Part shown: positions 45,606-62,869 of the stretch, in pieces
Layout: the number at the start of each line of letters is the position of its first letter
How positions within the stretch are numbered: position 1 is the first letter of the stretch
Assembly: GCF_964213995.1 (NCBI RefSeq)
Contig: NC_135830.1
Location: forward strand, 682,001-746,000
From: Mustelus asterias
Taxonomy: Eukaryota
Direction: 5' to 3'
Length of the DNA stretch: 64,000 nt
Made by a program: the position numbers and the translations under genes
The notes under the pieces: model-generated
What the model saw: the letters and a program-made list of their open reading frames with translations, nothing else
Databases searched by the model: none
What the model was told of the DNA's origin: nothing

Positions 45606-48538
45606 TAATTGATGCATGGATGGGGACTGCAATGCACGGCATTGCAGAGGTGGGGTGGAGCAGGGTTTGAAATGTGTATACTTCAATGCCAGGAGTATTC
45701 GCAATAAAGTGGGTGAACTTGCAGCGTGGATCAGTACCTGGGACTTCGATGTTGTGGCTATTTCAGAGACATGGATAGAGCAGGGGCAGGAATGGATGCT
45801 GCAGGTCCCGGGGTTCAAATGTTTTAGTCGAAGTAGGGAAGGAGGTAGAAGAGGGGGAGGGGTAGCATTATTGGTCAGAGATTGTATCACAGTGTCAGAG
45901 AGGAGGTTTGATGAGGACTTATCTGTTGAGGTAGTATGGGCGGAGATTAGAAATAGGAGAGGAGAGGTCACCCTGTTGGGAGTCTTTTATAGACCTCCTA
46001 AAAGTTCTAGAGAGGTTGAGGAAAGGATTGCGGAGTCAATCCTGCTTAGGAGTGAAAGTAATAGGGCAATTGTTATGGGGGATTTTAACTTGACTAATAT
46101 TGACTGGAATTGTTATAGCTCTAGCTCGTTAGAGGGGTCAGTTTTTGTTCAAAGCGTGCAGGAAGGTTTTTTGACTCAGTATGTAGACAGGCCAACTAGA
46201 GGTGAGGCTATATTGGATCTGGTGCTGGGAAATGAGCCAGACCAGGTGCTAGACTTGGAAGTTGGTGTGCATTTTGGTGATAGTGACCACAATTCGGTTA
46301 CGTTCACCTTAGTGATGGAAAGGGATAGGCATGAACCTCGGGCCAATGGTTTTAGCTGGGGGAAGGGTAATTATGAGGCTATTAGGAGAGAATTAGGAAA
46401 CATAGGTTGGACTAGGAGATTACAGGGACTGGGAACGTCCGACATGTGGAGTTTTTTCAAGGAGCAGCTACTGCGAGTCTGTGATAGGTATGTCCCTGTC
46501 AGGCAAGGAGGAATTGGTAGGGCTAGGGAACCGTGGTGCACCAAAAAAGTTTCTTTGTTGGTTAAAAAGAAAAAGGAGGCTTATGTTCGGATGAGACGTG
46601 AGCACTCGGGTAGTGCACTAGAAAGCTTTAGATTGGCTAAGAGGGAGTTGAAGAGCGAGCTTAGAAGGGCTAAAAGGGGACATGAGAAGACTTTGGCGGA
46701 TAGGGTTAAAGAGAATCCTAAGGCGTTCTATAGGTATGTCAAGAACAGAAGGTTGGTTAGGGCAAGTTTAGGGCCAGTTATAGATGGCAGAGGGAAGTTA
46801 TGTGTGGAACCGGAGGAGATTGGTGAAGCATTGAACCAATATTTCTCTTCGGTGTTCACGCAAGGGGACATGAATATAGCTGAGGAGGACACTGGGTTGC
46901 AAGGGAGTAGAATAGACAGTATTACAGTTGATAAGGAGGATGTGCAGGATATTCTGGAGGGTCTGAAAATAGATAAATCCCCTGGTCCGGATGGGATTTA
47001 TCCAAGGATTCTCTGGGAGGCAAGAGAAGTGATTGCAGAGCCTCTGGCTCTGATCTTCAGGTCGTCGTTGGCCTCTGGTATAGTACCAGAAGATTGGAGG
47101 TTAGCGAATGTTGTCCCATTGTTTAAGAAGGGGAACAGAGACTTCCCCGGGAATTATAGACCGGTGAGTCTCACTTCTGTTGTCGGCAAGATGTTGGAAA
47201 AAATTATAAGGGATAGGATTTATAGTTATTTGGAGAGTAATGAATTGATAGGTGATAGTCAGCATGGTTTTGTGGCAGGTAGGTCGTGCCTTACTAACCT
47301 TATTGAGTTTTTTGAGAAAGTGACCAAGGAGGTGGATGGGGGCAAGGCAGTGGACGTGGTATATATGGATTTTAGTAAGGCGTTTGATAAGGTTCACCAT
47401 GGTAGGCTTCTGCAGAAAATGCAGATGTATGGGATTGGGGGTGATCTAGGAAATTGGATCAGGAATTGGCTAGCGGATAGGAAACAGAGGGTGGTGGTTG
47501 ATAGTAAATATTCATCATGGAGTGCGGTTACAAGTGGTGTACCTCAGGGATCTGTTTTGGGGCCACTGCTGTTTGTAATATTTATTAATGATCTGGATGA
47601 GGGTATAGTTGGGTGGATTAGCAAATTTGCTGATGACACCAAAGTCGGTGGTGTGGTAGACAGTGAGGAAGGGTGTCGTAGTTTGCAGGAAGACTTAGAC
47701 AGGTTGCAAAGTTGGGCCGAGAGGTGGCGGATGGAGTTTAATGCGGAGAAGTGTGAGGTAATTCACTTTGGTAGGAATAACAGATGTGTTGAGTATAGGG
47801 CTAACGGGAGGACTTTGAATAGTGTGGAGGAGCAGAGGGATCTAGGTGTATGTGTGCATAGATCCCTGAAAGTTGGGAATCAAGTAGATAAGGTTGTTAA
47901 GAAGGCATATGGTGTCTTGGCGTTTATTGGTAAGGGGATTGAATTTAGGAGTCGTAGCGTTATGTTGCAACTGTACACAACTCTGGTGCGGCCGCACTTG
48001 GAGTACTGTGTGCAGTTCTGGTCCCCACATTACAGGAAGGATGTGGAGGCTTTGGAGAGGGTGCAGAGGAGGTTTACCAGGATGTTGCCTGGTATGGAGG
48101 GGAGATCCTATGAGGAGAGGCTGAGGGATTTGGGATTGTTTTCGCTGGAAAGGCGGCGGCTAAGAGGGGATCTTATTGAAACATATAAGATGATTAGAGG
48201 TTTAGATAGGGTGGATAGTGATAGCCTTTTTCCTCTGATGGAGAAATCCAGCACGAGGGGGCATGGCTTTAAATTGAGGGGGGGTAGTTATAGAACCGAT
48301 GTCAGGGGTAGGTTCTTTACCCAGAGGGTGGTGAGGGATTGGAATGCCCTGCCAGCATCAGTAGTAAATGCGCCTAGTTTGGGGGCGTTTAAGAGATCCG
48401 TAGATAGGTTCATGGACGAAAAGAAATTGGTTTAGGTTGGAGGGTCACAGTTTTTTTTTTAACTGGTCGGTGCAACATCGTGGGCCGAAGGGCCTGTTCT
48501 GCGCTGTAATGTTCTATGTTCTATGTTCTATGTTCTAT
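45606..48538 (+). mobile_element. Young CR1 LINE (ORF1 missing), inserted into an older CR1 fragment
   Basis: Intact ORF2, short 3' UTR and (GTTCTAT)n tail; ATCT at both junctions; decayed CR1 continues at 48540-49205. Confidence 0.9.
45616..48435 (+). CDS. Intact CR1 LINE ORF2 (APE endonuclease + reverse transcriptase), 939 aa
   Basis: Uninterrupted ORF with [50 protein letters not shown] and FADD. Confidence 0.95.
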   Translation: MDGDCNARHCRGGVEQGLKCVYFNARSIRNKVGELAAWISTWDFDVVAISETWIEQGQEWMLQVPGFKCFSRSREGGRRGGGVALLVRDCITVSERRFDEDLSVEVVWAEIRNRRGEVTLLGVFYRPPKSSREVEERIAESILLRSESNRAIVMGDFNLTNIDWNCYSSSSLEGSVFVQSVQEGFLTQYVDRPTRGEAILDLVLGNEPDQVLDLEVGVHFGDSDHNSVTFTLVMERDRHEPRANGFSWGKGNYEAIRRELGNIGWTRRLQGLGTSDMWSFFKEQLLRVCDRYVPVRQGGIGRAREPWCTKKVSLLVKKKKEAYVRMRREHSGSALESFRLAKRELKSELRRAKRGHEKTLADRVKENPKAFYRYVKNRRLVRASLGPVIDGRGKLCVEPEEIGEALNQYFSSVFTQGDMNIAEEDTGLQGSRIDSITVDKEDVQDILEGLKIDKSPGPDGIYPRILWEAREVIAEPLALIFRSSLASGIVPEDWRLANVVPLFKKGNRDFPGNYRPVSLTSVVGKMLEKIIRDRIYSYLESNELIGDSQHGFVAGRSCLTNLIEFFEKVTKEVDGGKAVDVVYMDFSKAFDKVHHGRLLQKMQMYGIGGDLGNWIRNWLADRKQRVVVDSKYSSWSAVTSGVPQGSVLGPLLFVIFINDLDEGIVGWISKFADDTKVGGVVDSEEGCRSLQEDLDRLQSWAERWRMEFNAEKCEVIHFGRNNRCVEYRANGRTLNSVEEQRDLGVCVHRSLKVGNQVDKVVKKAYGVLAFIGKGIEFRSRSVMLQLYTTLVRPHLEYCVQFWSPHYRKDVEALERVQRRFTRMLPGMEGRSYEERLRDLGLFSLERRRLRGDLIETYKMIRGLDRVDSDSLFPLMEKSSTRGHGFKLRGGSYRTDVRGRFFTQRVVRDWNALPASVVNAPSLGAFKRSVDRFMDEKKLV

Positions 48539-52884: not shown

Positions 52885-52927
52885 ATGCATATTTTCTGGG
52901 CTGCGCTCCTTTTTACGTGGTTATCAA
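52885..52927 (+). CDS. IgNAR: IgNAR leader (signal peptide) exon, MHIFWAALLFTWLS
   Basis: ATG at 52885, hydrophobic peptide, phase-1 donor GTAAGT at 52928; splices in frame to the acceptor CATCCAG ending 53067. Confidence 0.92.
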
Positions 52928-53067
52928 GTAAGTTTCCTTCAGAAGAGAAAATATGTGTTAACTGGATAAAATTAGGTGGCTGCGCATACATTGTGGAAAA
53001 TTCTTTGCCTTCAAGTTCTTGTATTGTTTCAGACAAATAATTCATTTCGTATCTTTTCTCCATCCAG

Positions 53068-53342
53068 ATGCCTTCAGTACACATGTCGATCAAACACCAC
53101 GAATGGCAACTAAAGAAACAGGCGAATCTCTGACAATCAACTGCGTCCTAAGGGGTGCTAGCTGTGGCTTGTACGCAACAAGCTGGTTTCGGAAAAGTCC
53201 TGGTTCAACAGATTGGGAACGCATCACCATTGGCGGCCGATATGTTGAATCTGTCAACAAGGGAAGCAAGTCGTTTTCACTGCAGATCAAGGACTTAACA
53301 GTTGAAGACAGTGTCACATTTTACTGCAAAGCTCAAGATGCC
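53068..53342 (+). CDS. IgNAR: IgNAR variable (VNAR) gene segment, type II (CDR1 Cys), germline unrearranged
   Basis: (N)AFS-THVDQTPRMATKETGESLTINCVLRGASCGLYATSWFRKSPGSTDWERITIGGRYVESVNKGSKSFSLQIKDLTVEDSVTFYCKAQDA. Canonical Cys/Trp/Cys, CDR2 deletion typical of VNAR, extra Cys in CDR1, no stops. Confidence 0.97.
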
Positions 53343-53380
53343 CACAGCAATAAGATTGAACTGCGAGTCATACAAAAATA
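53343..53380 (+). other. V 3' recombination signal sequence (22-bp spacer)
   Basis: CACAGCA + 22 nt + ACAAAAATA. Confidence 0.9.
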
Positions 53381-53571
53381 TCTTCCGAACTCCCAATGAA
53401 GACAAGACAATTTTGTTCGCTCTTCTGGTTGAATCTGCATTTTAGCTGTGGAAACTATTTTGAAACGGAGACATTCGTAAATATCTGGTGACAGCTCCAG
53501 GATGATAAACCCCAGCATTTGAAATGTGAATGCGCAACAACTGTCTTCAACACCCAGGCAAACAGAGAAGC

Positions 53572-53648
53572 TGTTTTTGAACGGGGCTGGACCACTGTGT
53601 GGGTACAGCCACAGCAATCGAGAAGACGGTTCCTGTCATACACAAACT
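53572..53648 (+). other. IgNAR: IgNAR D1 segment (53600-53609, TGGGTACAGC) with 12/23 RSS
   Basis: TGTTTTTGA-12-CACTGTG | D | CACAGCA-23-ACACAAACT. Confidence 0.9.
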
Positions 53649-54040
53649 ATCGTCAGACTTGTTTTCTTTAACATTGGAACAATTTAACTGTTCCTCAGCA
53701 TGTCTTGCGGGAAGTTATTAATGAATAACCTGGAGGTTTAGCACGTTTACTCAAAAGAAAAAAAAATGAAAAAAGGAACATTGAGATGTTCTGCAAAGGT
53801 CGAGATTGCTCACAAGAATAAGATTGAACTTCCAGTTCAGCAAAAAATACCTTCCGATCTCCCAATGAATACAAGACAATTTTATTCGCTCTCCTGGCTG
53901 AAACTGCATTCTAGCTGTGGATACTATTCTGAAATGGGGACATTTATAATCATCTCGTGACAGTCCCAGGATCATAAACCCCAGCATTTGGAATGTGAAT
54001 GCGCAGCAAGTGTCTTCAACACCCAGACAAACAGAGAAGC

Positions 54041-54117
54041 TGTTTTTGAACGGGGCTGTACCACTGTGTGGGTACTGCCACAGTAATCACGAAGACGGTT
54101 CCTGTCATACACAAACC
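54041..54117 (+). other. IgNAR: IgNAR D2 segment (54069-54078, TGGGTACTGC) with 12/23 RSS
   Basis: TGTTTTTGA-12-CACTGTG | D | CACAGTA-23-ACACAAACC. Confidence 0.9.
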
Positions 54118-54313
54118 ACCTTCAGATTTGTTTTCTTTAACACTGGAACAAGTTAACTGTTCCTCAGCTGGTTTTGCGGGAAGTGATTAATGAATATTTT
54201 GGAAGGATAGCACATTCAGTTGAATGAAAACAATGAAAAAAAAGAACATTGTGATGTGAAGTCGCATTGGAGTATACGTCTCGAACTGAGAGCTTGGATG
54301 ACTATACATGACA

Positions 54314-54393
54314 CGTTTTTGCACTGATCTCTGCGGCTGTGTAGCTGTGATGGGCCACATCAATGAATCATAGATTCTCCTTATACAAAAACT
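54314..54393 (+). other. IgNAR: IgNAR D3 segment (54342-54355, TAGCTGTGATGGGC) with 12/22 RSS
   Basis: CGTTTTTGC-12-GGCTGTG | D | CACATCA-22-ACAAAAACT. Confidence 0.85.
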
Positions 54394-54710
54394 AGTCCTA
54401 TACTCCTGAAGACAAAACAAACAGATTTTACTTTCTGAGTGGCTCCGGTAGCTCATGGTCAAACAACTGCTGTCCTCCTCAGACACCGATTGATGCACTG
54501 AAACATTTTCTCTGTTTATTTTGACAATTATGTTTATAAATATTTGAATCGCATTTATAACATAGCACGGAGGTTTGTCCATGATTTGGACGAGTCCTTA
54601 GGAGCTATAGACAGCTGCTCGGATCCCATTATGAAGGGAACGTTTTGCGACAATTTCCAATCGATATTTTGGAATGATTGAAGCATTTTTTGTGAAGGTT
54701 TGAATGATGG

Positions 54711-54778
54711 ATTTATTGTGCTGGTGTGAAGTGATGTGCAGCTACGGTGACACGGTGATGTGGGCCACAACAAAAACC
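54711..54778 (+). other. IgNAR: IgNAR D4 segment (54739-54750, CAGCTACGGTGA) with 12/12 RSS
   Basis: ATTTATTGT-12-TGATGTG | D | CACGGTG-12-ACAAAAACC (perfect nonamer). Confidence 0.85.
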
Positions 54779-55093
54779 TCCACAACAGTTACTTCCTTTA
54801 CAACTGGCGAACCAGGCTGTATTGTACTGTTTCTTACACCTCTAATTGCACAGCATTAGAAATCCGTTCCCGATGGAAATGTTTTTTTTAATGCACCATT
54901 ATGGTCCTTAATATTGAATCACTGGATTGTCTTTCTTGTAAGGTATTACAAGTGTACACATCGCTCATGGAAAATATCTCCACAGGTGGAAACAGATCAA
55001 GAATTTAGATACATTGATAAATGCAACATTTGGAAAAGATCTTTGCCTCGATGTTGCTTCAGGACTATGATTAGAGGATTTTGCTTCATTGGC

Positions 55094-55132
55094 AGTTTGT
55101 GACATGGGCTGAATGGATGCTCAGTGACTGTG
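55094..55132 (-). other. J 5' recombination signal sequence (23-bp spacer)
   Basis: AGTTTGTGA + 23 nt + GACTGTG on the + strand. Confidence 0.8.
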
Positions 55133-55178
55133 TGTTACTACTATGATGGGGCTGGCACCGTGCTGACTGTGAACTCTG
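55133..55178 (+). CDS. IgNAR: IgNAR J segment, CYYYDGAGTVLTVNS
   Basis: GxGTxLTV FR4 motif of VNAR; phase-1 donor GTAAGT at 55179, compatible with the C1 acceptor. Confidence 0.95.
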
Positions 55179-57319
55179 GTAAGTGACGTTTCTTGCTACT
55201 TCTTCAATAAGATTTATTTTACATAAAGGTTAAGAAGAACTAATGCTTTCATTCATATTGCGTGAAGAGATGAAGTAACATTCACAGTTCTTTTTCAGAT
55301 CCCGACTTAATTGACTGTCTCATTTGATTTGGCTGGCATTTAGAACTATTTTAAACAGAACATTGTGACTGAAAATATTAGATTTTAGCTGTCAACAAAC
55401 ACTTTAAAGACTTGATTGGGAAGGTGATGCTGGTTTTTAGAGTTAAAACGGAACCAATCATACATTTTTCATCCTGACTGACCTGGTAGCTTGTAAAATG
55501 AATAGATAGTATTTCTAACCCAAAACAAATCTATGCAATATTGTGGTGAGGAGTGATCTCTACAATCATGTAATAAATGTAACGTATTGTTTCATAAAAT
55601 GCTGGTTATGGTTTTATATGACCCATAAAAACACTTCTCGCTATCCATGACATGGAAAGTAACATTAATGTCTGATCGGACCCAGAAAATATGTTGGTCA
55701 ATAACTTCTGTAAATTTCAGAATTTGGCTCAAAGGGAAATAGCAAATGATCGAGAATGGGACTGACTGGACATGGTATTAATCTATTCCTGTAGCGCCAG
55801 GAGTGCTCTAGTAATTCAGCAAACTATCTGACAAGTTTATTCCACCCTTCCCCGCCTCAACACCCCCAGCTCCTACTCCGTCTCCCATTGGCTTGGAATG
55901 CGGATTTAATTTCCAGCCAAAAGTAAGCGACAGCAGACCAGTCGAGTCTCAGTTTAGTGAATACCAGTGGAAAGCAGATTGACAGGAGATCAGTCATTGA
56001 AGAAATCTGACTTTCAATTCGCCATCTGCTGGTGTGGCACAACAAACCAGACAGATTTAACCACACGTTGTGTAATTCTGTGAGAATCCTGTTTACATCG
56101 AAACTTGTCTCCTTCAGCTAATATGGGCTCTCTGTGTGTAAAACTAGCTGATTGATCCAAAAAGTAGACACTGAAATTGAACACAATATTCAAAAGCTGT
56201 CTCTTTGTCCTTTTATATTCTTAACTCCATTAAGAATTGTTTTAAGTCTCAATGTGAATAGTGTTTTCTTACACTTCAGATGTTATGTTGTCTATTTCCT
56301 TACTTTATTTGAAGAAGCAATTTGTTGATTTGGAGTCTGAGGTCGGGAAATCCGTCCTCGCGTGGCAGTGCAAAACTTGGGCATGGGTTCGGCACGTTAT
56401 CTTCCACTGATTGCAATGAATGATTGTATGACAGCTGGCCCGTACCAATACGCCCGTTTTATGCCATCAGCACAGATGTATATTTTACCTTTTAATTTTC
56501 ACAGCAAACGGTGAGGTGCAGGTTGGATTAGAAACATCACTCATGTGTATTGTTTCACTGCAGAGGTGGAGCAGTCGTTCGAAACATCAAGGAAAGCTGT
56601 GGGGTGGGAAATTGAGTTTTGTCCCTTCAATAGTGTGTAACAAAATTCTAAAATAGTGTGTGTGCTGCGGCATATTAGTTAAGATCAATTTTAATTGTTC
56701 TGGTTATAACAGGGCATGTTAGCCAAGGTGGAGCAGGGGTGTTAATAACAAAGACGGCTTTGGCAGAGTAATTAAGGAGAAACCTTTGACTGGATCTAGA
56801 TTTTAAAAAGTGGGTATCACATGTGGGTTGAGGAGTAACTTGATGTCTTGATTTTTTATGATGAGAAATGAAGTGCCAGGAGGCCTGGTAGAAGTGGATG
56901 CTGAATTAATATCTCAAGATACATTTTACAACAATGTCGAGGCAGAATGCATACAAGTTTTATTTGAAAATGAGACAGCCAGACTCAATCTGTGGCTTTC
57001 AGTAAGACCCTGTGCATAGGCAGAATGACAGATTTGCCTCATTCTGTTCTCTACCATGAAATGATTGTACGATTTTTGCCGCTGTTTATTTTACAATGCT
57101 TCTTAGATGGCCGCAAATAGCAGAACAGTTGTAATTCGCAATATTCCAGAGGTCACGAGTGCATGAGAACAGTGAAGGTGGGAGGTTTGCCAGGGTGGGT
57201 GTGGGCATATTTTTATCATGGAATCTACAGGTAGCAATGCCGTGCAGTAAATGTTCAGTTGTATATGACCTTATCCAGGAACAGAGGCATGTGATTATTT
57301 AGTGAAAGGAATGGATGGT

Positions 57320-62264: not shown

Positions 62265-62576
62265 GACTGATTCCCCCAGTCATCAGTCTCGTCTCTGAAA
62301 CTGATGAGTTGAGAGCAAAGGGGTTTGTGCAGCTGATTTGTTTGATCAGCGAGTACAAACCAGAAAGCATTGGAGTGAGCTGGGAGAAGAATGGAAACGC
62401 CCTACAGTCTGGCTTCACCACTACGTCTCCATGTAAAACAGCAAACGGAAAATCCCAATCCAGGAGCATCCTTAAGTTGCCACTTCAGGAATGGAACAGC
62501 GGTTCCACGTACAGCTGCCAAGTGACCCATTCTGCTACCAACAGCAACAAACGAAAAGAAATTAGATCAACATCAG
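62265..62576 (+). CDS. IgNAR: IgNAR constant domain 1 (C1) exon
   Basis: Acceptor TTTTAG ends 62264. Translation (G)LIPPVISLVSETDELRAKGFVQLICLISEYKPESIGVSWEKNG..LPLQEWNSGSTYSCQVTHSATNSNKRKEIRSTS is a C1-set Ig domain; phase-1 donor GTGAG at 62577. Confidence 0.95.
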
Positions 62577-62869
62577 GTGAGGAAATGGAACCAACTCACA
62601 AACTTCCAGATGTCATGCAATCTTATTTTATTTTCAGGATTCAATTCATTGGGAAGCTGGCACATAAACTATTCGATAAGCATTAAAAATCCGAGAAAGA
62701 AAACCCAGAAAATTTTGTGAAAACACAGCAATATCTTTGACGAGGGAAGCAGTAAGACTTTGGAATCATCTTTAGCAATTTCTGTTTTTTAAAAATTTCA
62801 TATTCACAGAATTTCACATATTTTGTTCTTGGAGATCCTGAAGCAGACCAATTGAATCATATATTCATA

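Follow-up and report, generated by a model that had tools for sequence, protein, structure and literature searches.

The window, a 64,000-nucleotide stretch of the Mustelus asterias genome, contains a shark IgNAR minicluster of about 2 kb with one V, four Ds and one J, carrying 12/23-compatible recombination signal sequences (RSSs). We consider it probable that a 468-bp tandem duplication changed an IgNAR cluster of the order V-D1-D2-D3-J to V-D1a-D1b-D2-D3-J before this cluster and its paralogue split, that the added segment, D1b, is used in rearrangement, and that the copied V signal left between the two D1 segments (the orphan V-RSS) is a weak, neutrally evolving relic.

Organization of the IgNAR cluster

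The features of the cluster were as follows.

52885-52927, + strand: IgNAR leader exon, from translation; GT..AG splice 52927>53068 in contigs of two of four runs
53068-53342, + strand: IgNAR V segment, a VNAR with a CDR1 cysteine, type II-like, from protein matches
53324-53789, + strand: duplication unit 1 (V end, V-RSS, spacer, D1a with its RSSs, spacer), from alignment and blastn
53343-53380, + strand: V 3' RSS with a 22-nt spacer, read from the sequence
53496-53673, no strand: D-centred block homogenized between the units, likely by gene conversion, with a counterpart in unit 2
53572-53648, + strand: D1a (53600-53609) with 5' 12-RSS and 3' 23-RSS; frames WVQ / GYS / GT
53789-53810, + strand: V stub, duplicating the final ~21 nt of V, from alignment
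53791-54257, + strand: duplication unit 2, from alignment and blastn
53811-53848, + strand: orphan V-RSS, retaining CAC and A-tract, with a 1-nt insertion that only the window cluster has
54041-54117, + strand: D1b (54069-54078) with 5' 12-RSS and 3' 23-RSS; frames WVL / GYC / GT
54314-54393, + strand: D2 (54342-54355) with 5' 12-RSS and 3' 22-RSS; one frame SCDG
54711-54778, + strand: D3 (54739-54750) with a 12-RSS on either side
55094-55178, + strand: J segment (55133-55178, YYDGAGTVLTVN) with 5' 23-RSS
62265-62590, + strand: first constant exon (C1) of IgNAR, its end placed approximately; contigs are spliced from J to C1

When the V protein was compared with candidate sequences, 15 of 16 passed an E-value of 1e-20, all of them named shark VNAR/NAR domains; the closest named match was VNAR 3B4 (78 % identity) and the top PDB matches were likewise VNARs. 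A cysteine in CDR1 is the type II VNAR pattern in the accessible text of PMC4622739. Beyond C1, a motif scan found four further C-type exons just past the end of the window, giving five constant exons counting C1, and loose contig ends at the J>C1 junction mapped to C1 in three of four runs.

Contigs in runs X1 and X4 crossed the unrearranged D region and J (54153-55179) and were spliced to C1 at 62265. The unrearranged D-J region is therefore transcribed, X1 and X4 themselves not being on record as RNA. Rearranged joints with D1b or the orphan did not appear among the listed contigs, which says little about their use because assembled contigs lose rare variants. The loose ends of one X1 contig at 53411-53460 corresponded to the V-D1 spacer of the paralogue with numerous A>G changes, a pattern, seen in this single contig, that A-to-I hyper-editing of germline RNA might leave.

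Many reverse transcriptase fragments, with one 940-codon open stretch, were present at 45613-48432 of the window and in other copies; from their translation we take those in the window to be CR1/LINE-like. An 84-bp repeat at 1300-1457 is presumably zinc-finger-like, again by translation.

The tandem duplication and the second cluster

The initial annotation had described diverged direct repeats of about 470 bp in which the V end was copied together with D, and had traced the extra D to tandem duplication of this V-end and D1 block, with the orphan as the copied V-RSS. The alignment bore out both points. Units 53324-53789 and 53791-54257 were 85.3 % identical over 469 nt (blastn, E 2e-148), were the sole non-self match within 53000-55300, and met at approximately 53789-53790. 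At the start of unit 2, 22 nt duplicate the V end and precede the copy of the V-RSS, whose heptamer (53811-53817), 22-nt spacer and nonamer (53840-53848) read as previously claimed against the V-RSS at 53343-53380, with the CAC intact. Low-stringency self-blast of 53000-55300 found no older duplications behind D2 or D3.

The left breakpoint fell within V, some 20 nt before its coding sequence ends, and the right about 140 nt beyond the 3' RSS of D1. Because these breakpoints lie away from heptamers and share at most 1-2 nt, we infer an ordinary non-homologous, non-RAG tandem event; a RAG-mediated origin was rejected given breakpoints without heptamer borders. Germline-joined shark Ig genes, attributed to RAG in germ cells in the accessible text of PMC2193156, are similar in showing an inherited change in segment number. 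There, however, segments are lost at heptamers, whereas here a segment was gained with breakpoints off heptamers, which makes RAG an unlikely cause.

A paralogous cluster was located at G000:C71:999145-1001284, 264 kb from the window cluster and on the opposite strand, 94 % identical to it from V to J and with both units present. Searches of the shark's own genome returned close Vs, IgNAR C1 exons and junction copies, two of each, these counts being lower bounds. Both of the two IgNAR clusters found in the assembly have four Ds, against three in published descriptions.

In spacer DNA the units differed by 13-16 % and the clusters by 7-8 %. Comparison of both clusters gave 33 fixed differences between units overall, unpolarized since the comparison held no three-D outgroup sequence. 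With the units more diverged than the clusters and these differences fixed, the tandem duplication therefore preceded the cluster split. No three-D IgNAR cluster to serve as outgroup was found among the V loci of the same genome; the third NAR-like V was germline-joined and the other V loci had at most one D.

A NAR-type V at G000:C71:2929533-2929793 (- strand), 57 % identical to the window V, showed an in-frame germline join to a J-like end, and no RSS was found downstream of it. A further 27 more distant NAR-like V loci were spread over many contigs, about half of them with a 22-RSS. Several had one 12/12 D and a J RSS, and others had no V-RSS and were possibly V-D joined, a layout that, we presume, recalls NAR-TCR V cassettes.

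Conservation of the D signals

It had been claimed that the D-RSSs are conserved in both units and the copied V-RSS decayed, with selection keeping the former and eroding the latter. In the four-way comparison, the D-RSSs indeed had no fixed differences between units (0/67 vs 24/329, p=0.02). The same was true of 67 nt of non-RSS DNA just upstream of them (0/67 vs 24/262, p=0.006), and the full 112-nt run without fixed differences had a chance probability of 0.0035. Conservation around D reached about 100 nt into non-RSS DNA: 101 nt of such DNA differed by 7.4 % between units and 8.4 % between clusters, while the flanks of the D-centred block differed by 17.6 and 7.2 %, respectively. Three sites grouped by cluster rather than by unit, and one the other way.

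Gene conversion between units over about 180 nt, with block borders picked after inspection, would be the simplest reading of this pattern; alternatively, the block may be a functional element. Since non-RSS DNA beside D is equally conserved, the similarity of the D-RSSs between units is not clean evidence of selection, and the conservation around D suggests that gene conversion between units has acted alongside selection. The count behind the earlier selection claim thus stands, but its interpretation is confounded by the homogenized non-RSS block.

Better evidence of selection is the identity of the D1a RSSs between clusters, with 0/67 differences compared to 27/329 in spacer (p=0.008). The D1b RSSs had 6/67 differences between clusters, changing no more slowly than spacer (p=0.61). 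Four of these were in RSS spacers and two in a heptamer or nonamer, the latter both toward consensus (chance 0.003-0.006, calculated post hoc). Constraint on D1b would therefore depend on the direction of those two changes. Conservation of the D-RSSs held between units and less so for D1b between clusters, and the decay described for the copied V-RSS was modest.

Divergence of the orphan V-RSS

Scored against the RSS consensus, the orphan had 6 mismatches, the V-RSS 4 and the 5' RSS of D3 6, the RSSs of the cluster spanning 1-6, so that the orphan falls within their range. Its divergence was compared with that of spacer DNA in the window (8/38 vs 51/331, p=0.36), in the paralogue (5/38 vs 43/329, p=1.0), for fixed differences (4/38 vs 24/329, p=0.51) and since the cluster split (2/38 vs 23/331, p=1.0). 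Faster decay of the orphan was found in none of the Fisher comparisons with spacer, the lowest p being 0.105 at the low power of a 38-nt element, a length at which a rate test is blind to selection confined to one or two inactivating changes. The claim that selection has been eroding the orphan was, within that power, not upheld, divergence no greater than in spacer being the result that the initial annotation had itself named as refuting it.

In both clusters the orphan carries the same changes at the fifth heptamer and first nonamer positions. The window cluster alone has a second heptamer change and the 1-nt insertion, and contigs of three other-organism runs showed another change in the nonamer (53847 A>G). 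The orphan likely drifts neutrally, changing like spacer DNA; on this sequence comparison it would have taken the two shared changes early and drifted thereafter.

We regard it as unlikely that selection actively eroded the orphan on account of dead-end joins while purifying selection alone kept both sets of D-RSSs. Fixed differences at 2/16 heptamer and nonamer sites of the orphan, against 0/32 in the D-RSSs, are in the direction that such erosion predicts. The cost predicted by the toy model below for an active orphan and the identity of the D1a RSSs in both clusters also speak for this reading. However, excess divergence of the orphan appeared in no comparison, its CAC and A-tract persist in both clusters after a long time, and purifying selection alone does not readily account for a conserved block that takes in 67 nt of non-RSS DNA. 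Neutral drift of the orphan is therefore the preferred reading.

Potential decoy activity of the orphan

We take the rules for a functional RSS to be a CAC, a 22/23 spacer and a nonamer A-tract. The orphan retains all three and would add a surplus 23-type signal to the cluster. In a toy model of random deletional joins, an orphan at full strength gave 22-77 % dead-end rearrangements, falling to 4-33 % when its strength was cut tenfold and to 0.4-5 % when it was cut a hundredfold, where the ranges depend on distance bias. The stretch retained after an orphan join had stops in all three frames. Low activity is the likeliest present state of the orphan, given how long it has persisted in both clusters.

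It is rather improbable that the orphan continues to function as a 22-RSS, whether tolerated or retained, and diverts a share of rearrangements to dead ends. Such activity would be compatible with the retained CAC and A-tract and with a mismatch count equal to that of the D3 5' RSS, a signal that no productive deletional join can bypass. A G-initial nonamer is in use at the 5' side of D2, the unrearranged region is transcribed according to the spliced contigs, and shark IgM miniloci rearrange without strict order in the accessible text of PMC2435157. Nevertheless, the orphan changes at the spacer rate with no sign of constraint, has gained the private insertion in the window cluster and the 53847 A>G change in three other-organism runs, and occurs in both clusters found, so that a high rate of decoy joining would tax the entire repertoire.

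Age of the duplication

In run X3 the junction was bridged by a short-read contig in the window form, with 0 differences and a depth of 20.6, and in the paralogue form at a depth of 21.5. The paralogue form was bridged in contigs of all four own-species runs, which belong to one study and are possibly the source of the assembly. Among the contigs listed, two of the four other-organism runs had junction contigs with at least 31 nt on both sides, namely X7 (53644-53871; 22 substitutions in 225 nt, 3 gaps) and X22, which bears no organism label (53649-53864; 27 substitutions in 212 nt, 4 gaps). The other-organism junction contigs were 87-90 % identical to the window. Also among the contigs listed, X12 reached only 22 nt beyond the junction and X10 had none bridging; the X12 joints were set aside, as their short sides fit both units.

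The duplication likely predates the split of several related shark species. At the epaulette shark mutation rate of 7e-10 per generation (accessible text of PMC10587355), a unit divergence of 16 % corresponds to about 110 million generations, or 57 million at the upper bound; 'very old' is all that this borrowed rate can say. The description of the locus as a snapshot of D-segment birth has to be abandoned, the event being older than the split of the two clusters and common to other organisms. The chance of an assembly artefact or a very recent duplication is negligible, and misassembly, for which the initial annotation had proposed looking for near-identical units, was rejected: nothing was found in its support beyond the single-study origin of the own-species runs, and the units are 15 % apart, with the junction recurring in the paralogue, in bridging short-read contigs and in other organisms.

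The fourth D segment

D1b is likely functional and used in rearrangement, judging from its intact signals and the change of both heptamer/nonamer sites toward consensus. Under the 12/23 rule, V would pair with any of the Ds, a 23-RSS with any D downstream of it, and J with D3. With four Ds there would then be up to five joins along 8 D paths, compared with four joins along 4 paths for three Ds. The order of IgNAR rearrangement is given as undetermined in the accessible text of PMC4622739.

At position 53607, T was read in all of the listed contig depth of X7, X12 and X22 and in 82/138 of X10. T is the D1b state and encodes Cys in one frame, while D1a encodes Ser in both clusters. Since the other organisms read T, the cysteine form of D1a is likely ancestral. 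D1a of the window (53600-53609) is 10 nt long and D1b-like, and D1a of the paralogue is 12 nt with a further change; conversion of the window D1a by D1b would fit these sequences. The V stub (53789-53810) reads Asp-Cys, the V end (53323-53342) is 1 nt shorter, and the paralogue V has Ser. Parsimony suggests that the ancestral V may have had a germline cysteine at its end, later lost from both Vs.

A broader scenario would derive the whole IgNAR repertoire of a shark lineage from four-D clusters grown by unequal exchange on the V-end and D1 module. In it, the active decoy of each module would trade dead-end joins for longer CDR3s, and the D1 copies would have split roles, D1b keeping the cysteine of the CDR1-CDR3 bond and D1a having lost it. 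We hold this combination to be improbable.

Comparison with known systems and significance

The window cluster resembles the IgNAR miniclusters of nurse shark and whitespotted bamboo shark (V-D1-D2-D3-J-C1-C5), as described in the accessible parts of four sources (PMC8692893, PMC4622739, PMC5192425, PMC4279169), in its VNAR V, leader intron, single J, five C exons and Ds between 12- and 22/23-spacer RSSs. The same sources also describe few clusters lying close together, as here, and clusters with three Ds, or fewer by germline joining. In contrast, both clusters here have four Ds, the extra one being a tandem D1 copy, and a V stub with an orphan V-RSS lies between the D1 copies. No four-D IgNAR or IgW layout was found in the literature searched, which consisted of main texts with little subscription coverage. 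The four-D cluster is a real, old, lineage-level variant of the IgNAR cluster, and it leaves the understanding of V(D)J recombination unchanged.

In mammalian IGH, D arrays grow by head-to-tail duplication of RSS-D-RSS blocks, and the number of Ds has similarly been raised here through tandem RSS-D-RSS copies. Unlike in mammals, the V end is part of the block, and the 12/23 arrangement allows serial joining of the new D, which could lengthen CDR3 beyond adding an alternative D. Nearly all IgNAR diversity sits in CDR3 and is attributed to four joins across three Ds. A fourth D in series would give up to five joins and a twofold number of D paths, and is relevant to germline references for VNAR repertoire analysis and to library design. 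The V-RSS and its orphan copy, with the same spacer length, form a natural pair for measuring what weakens a shark RSS, and the way in which a minicluster acquires a D can still be read in the locus.
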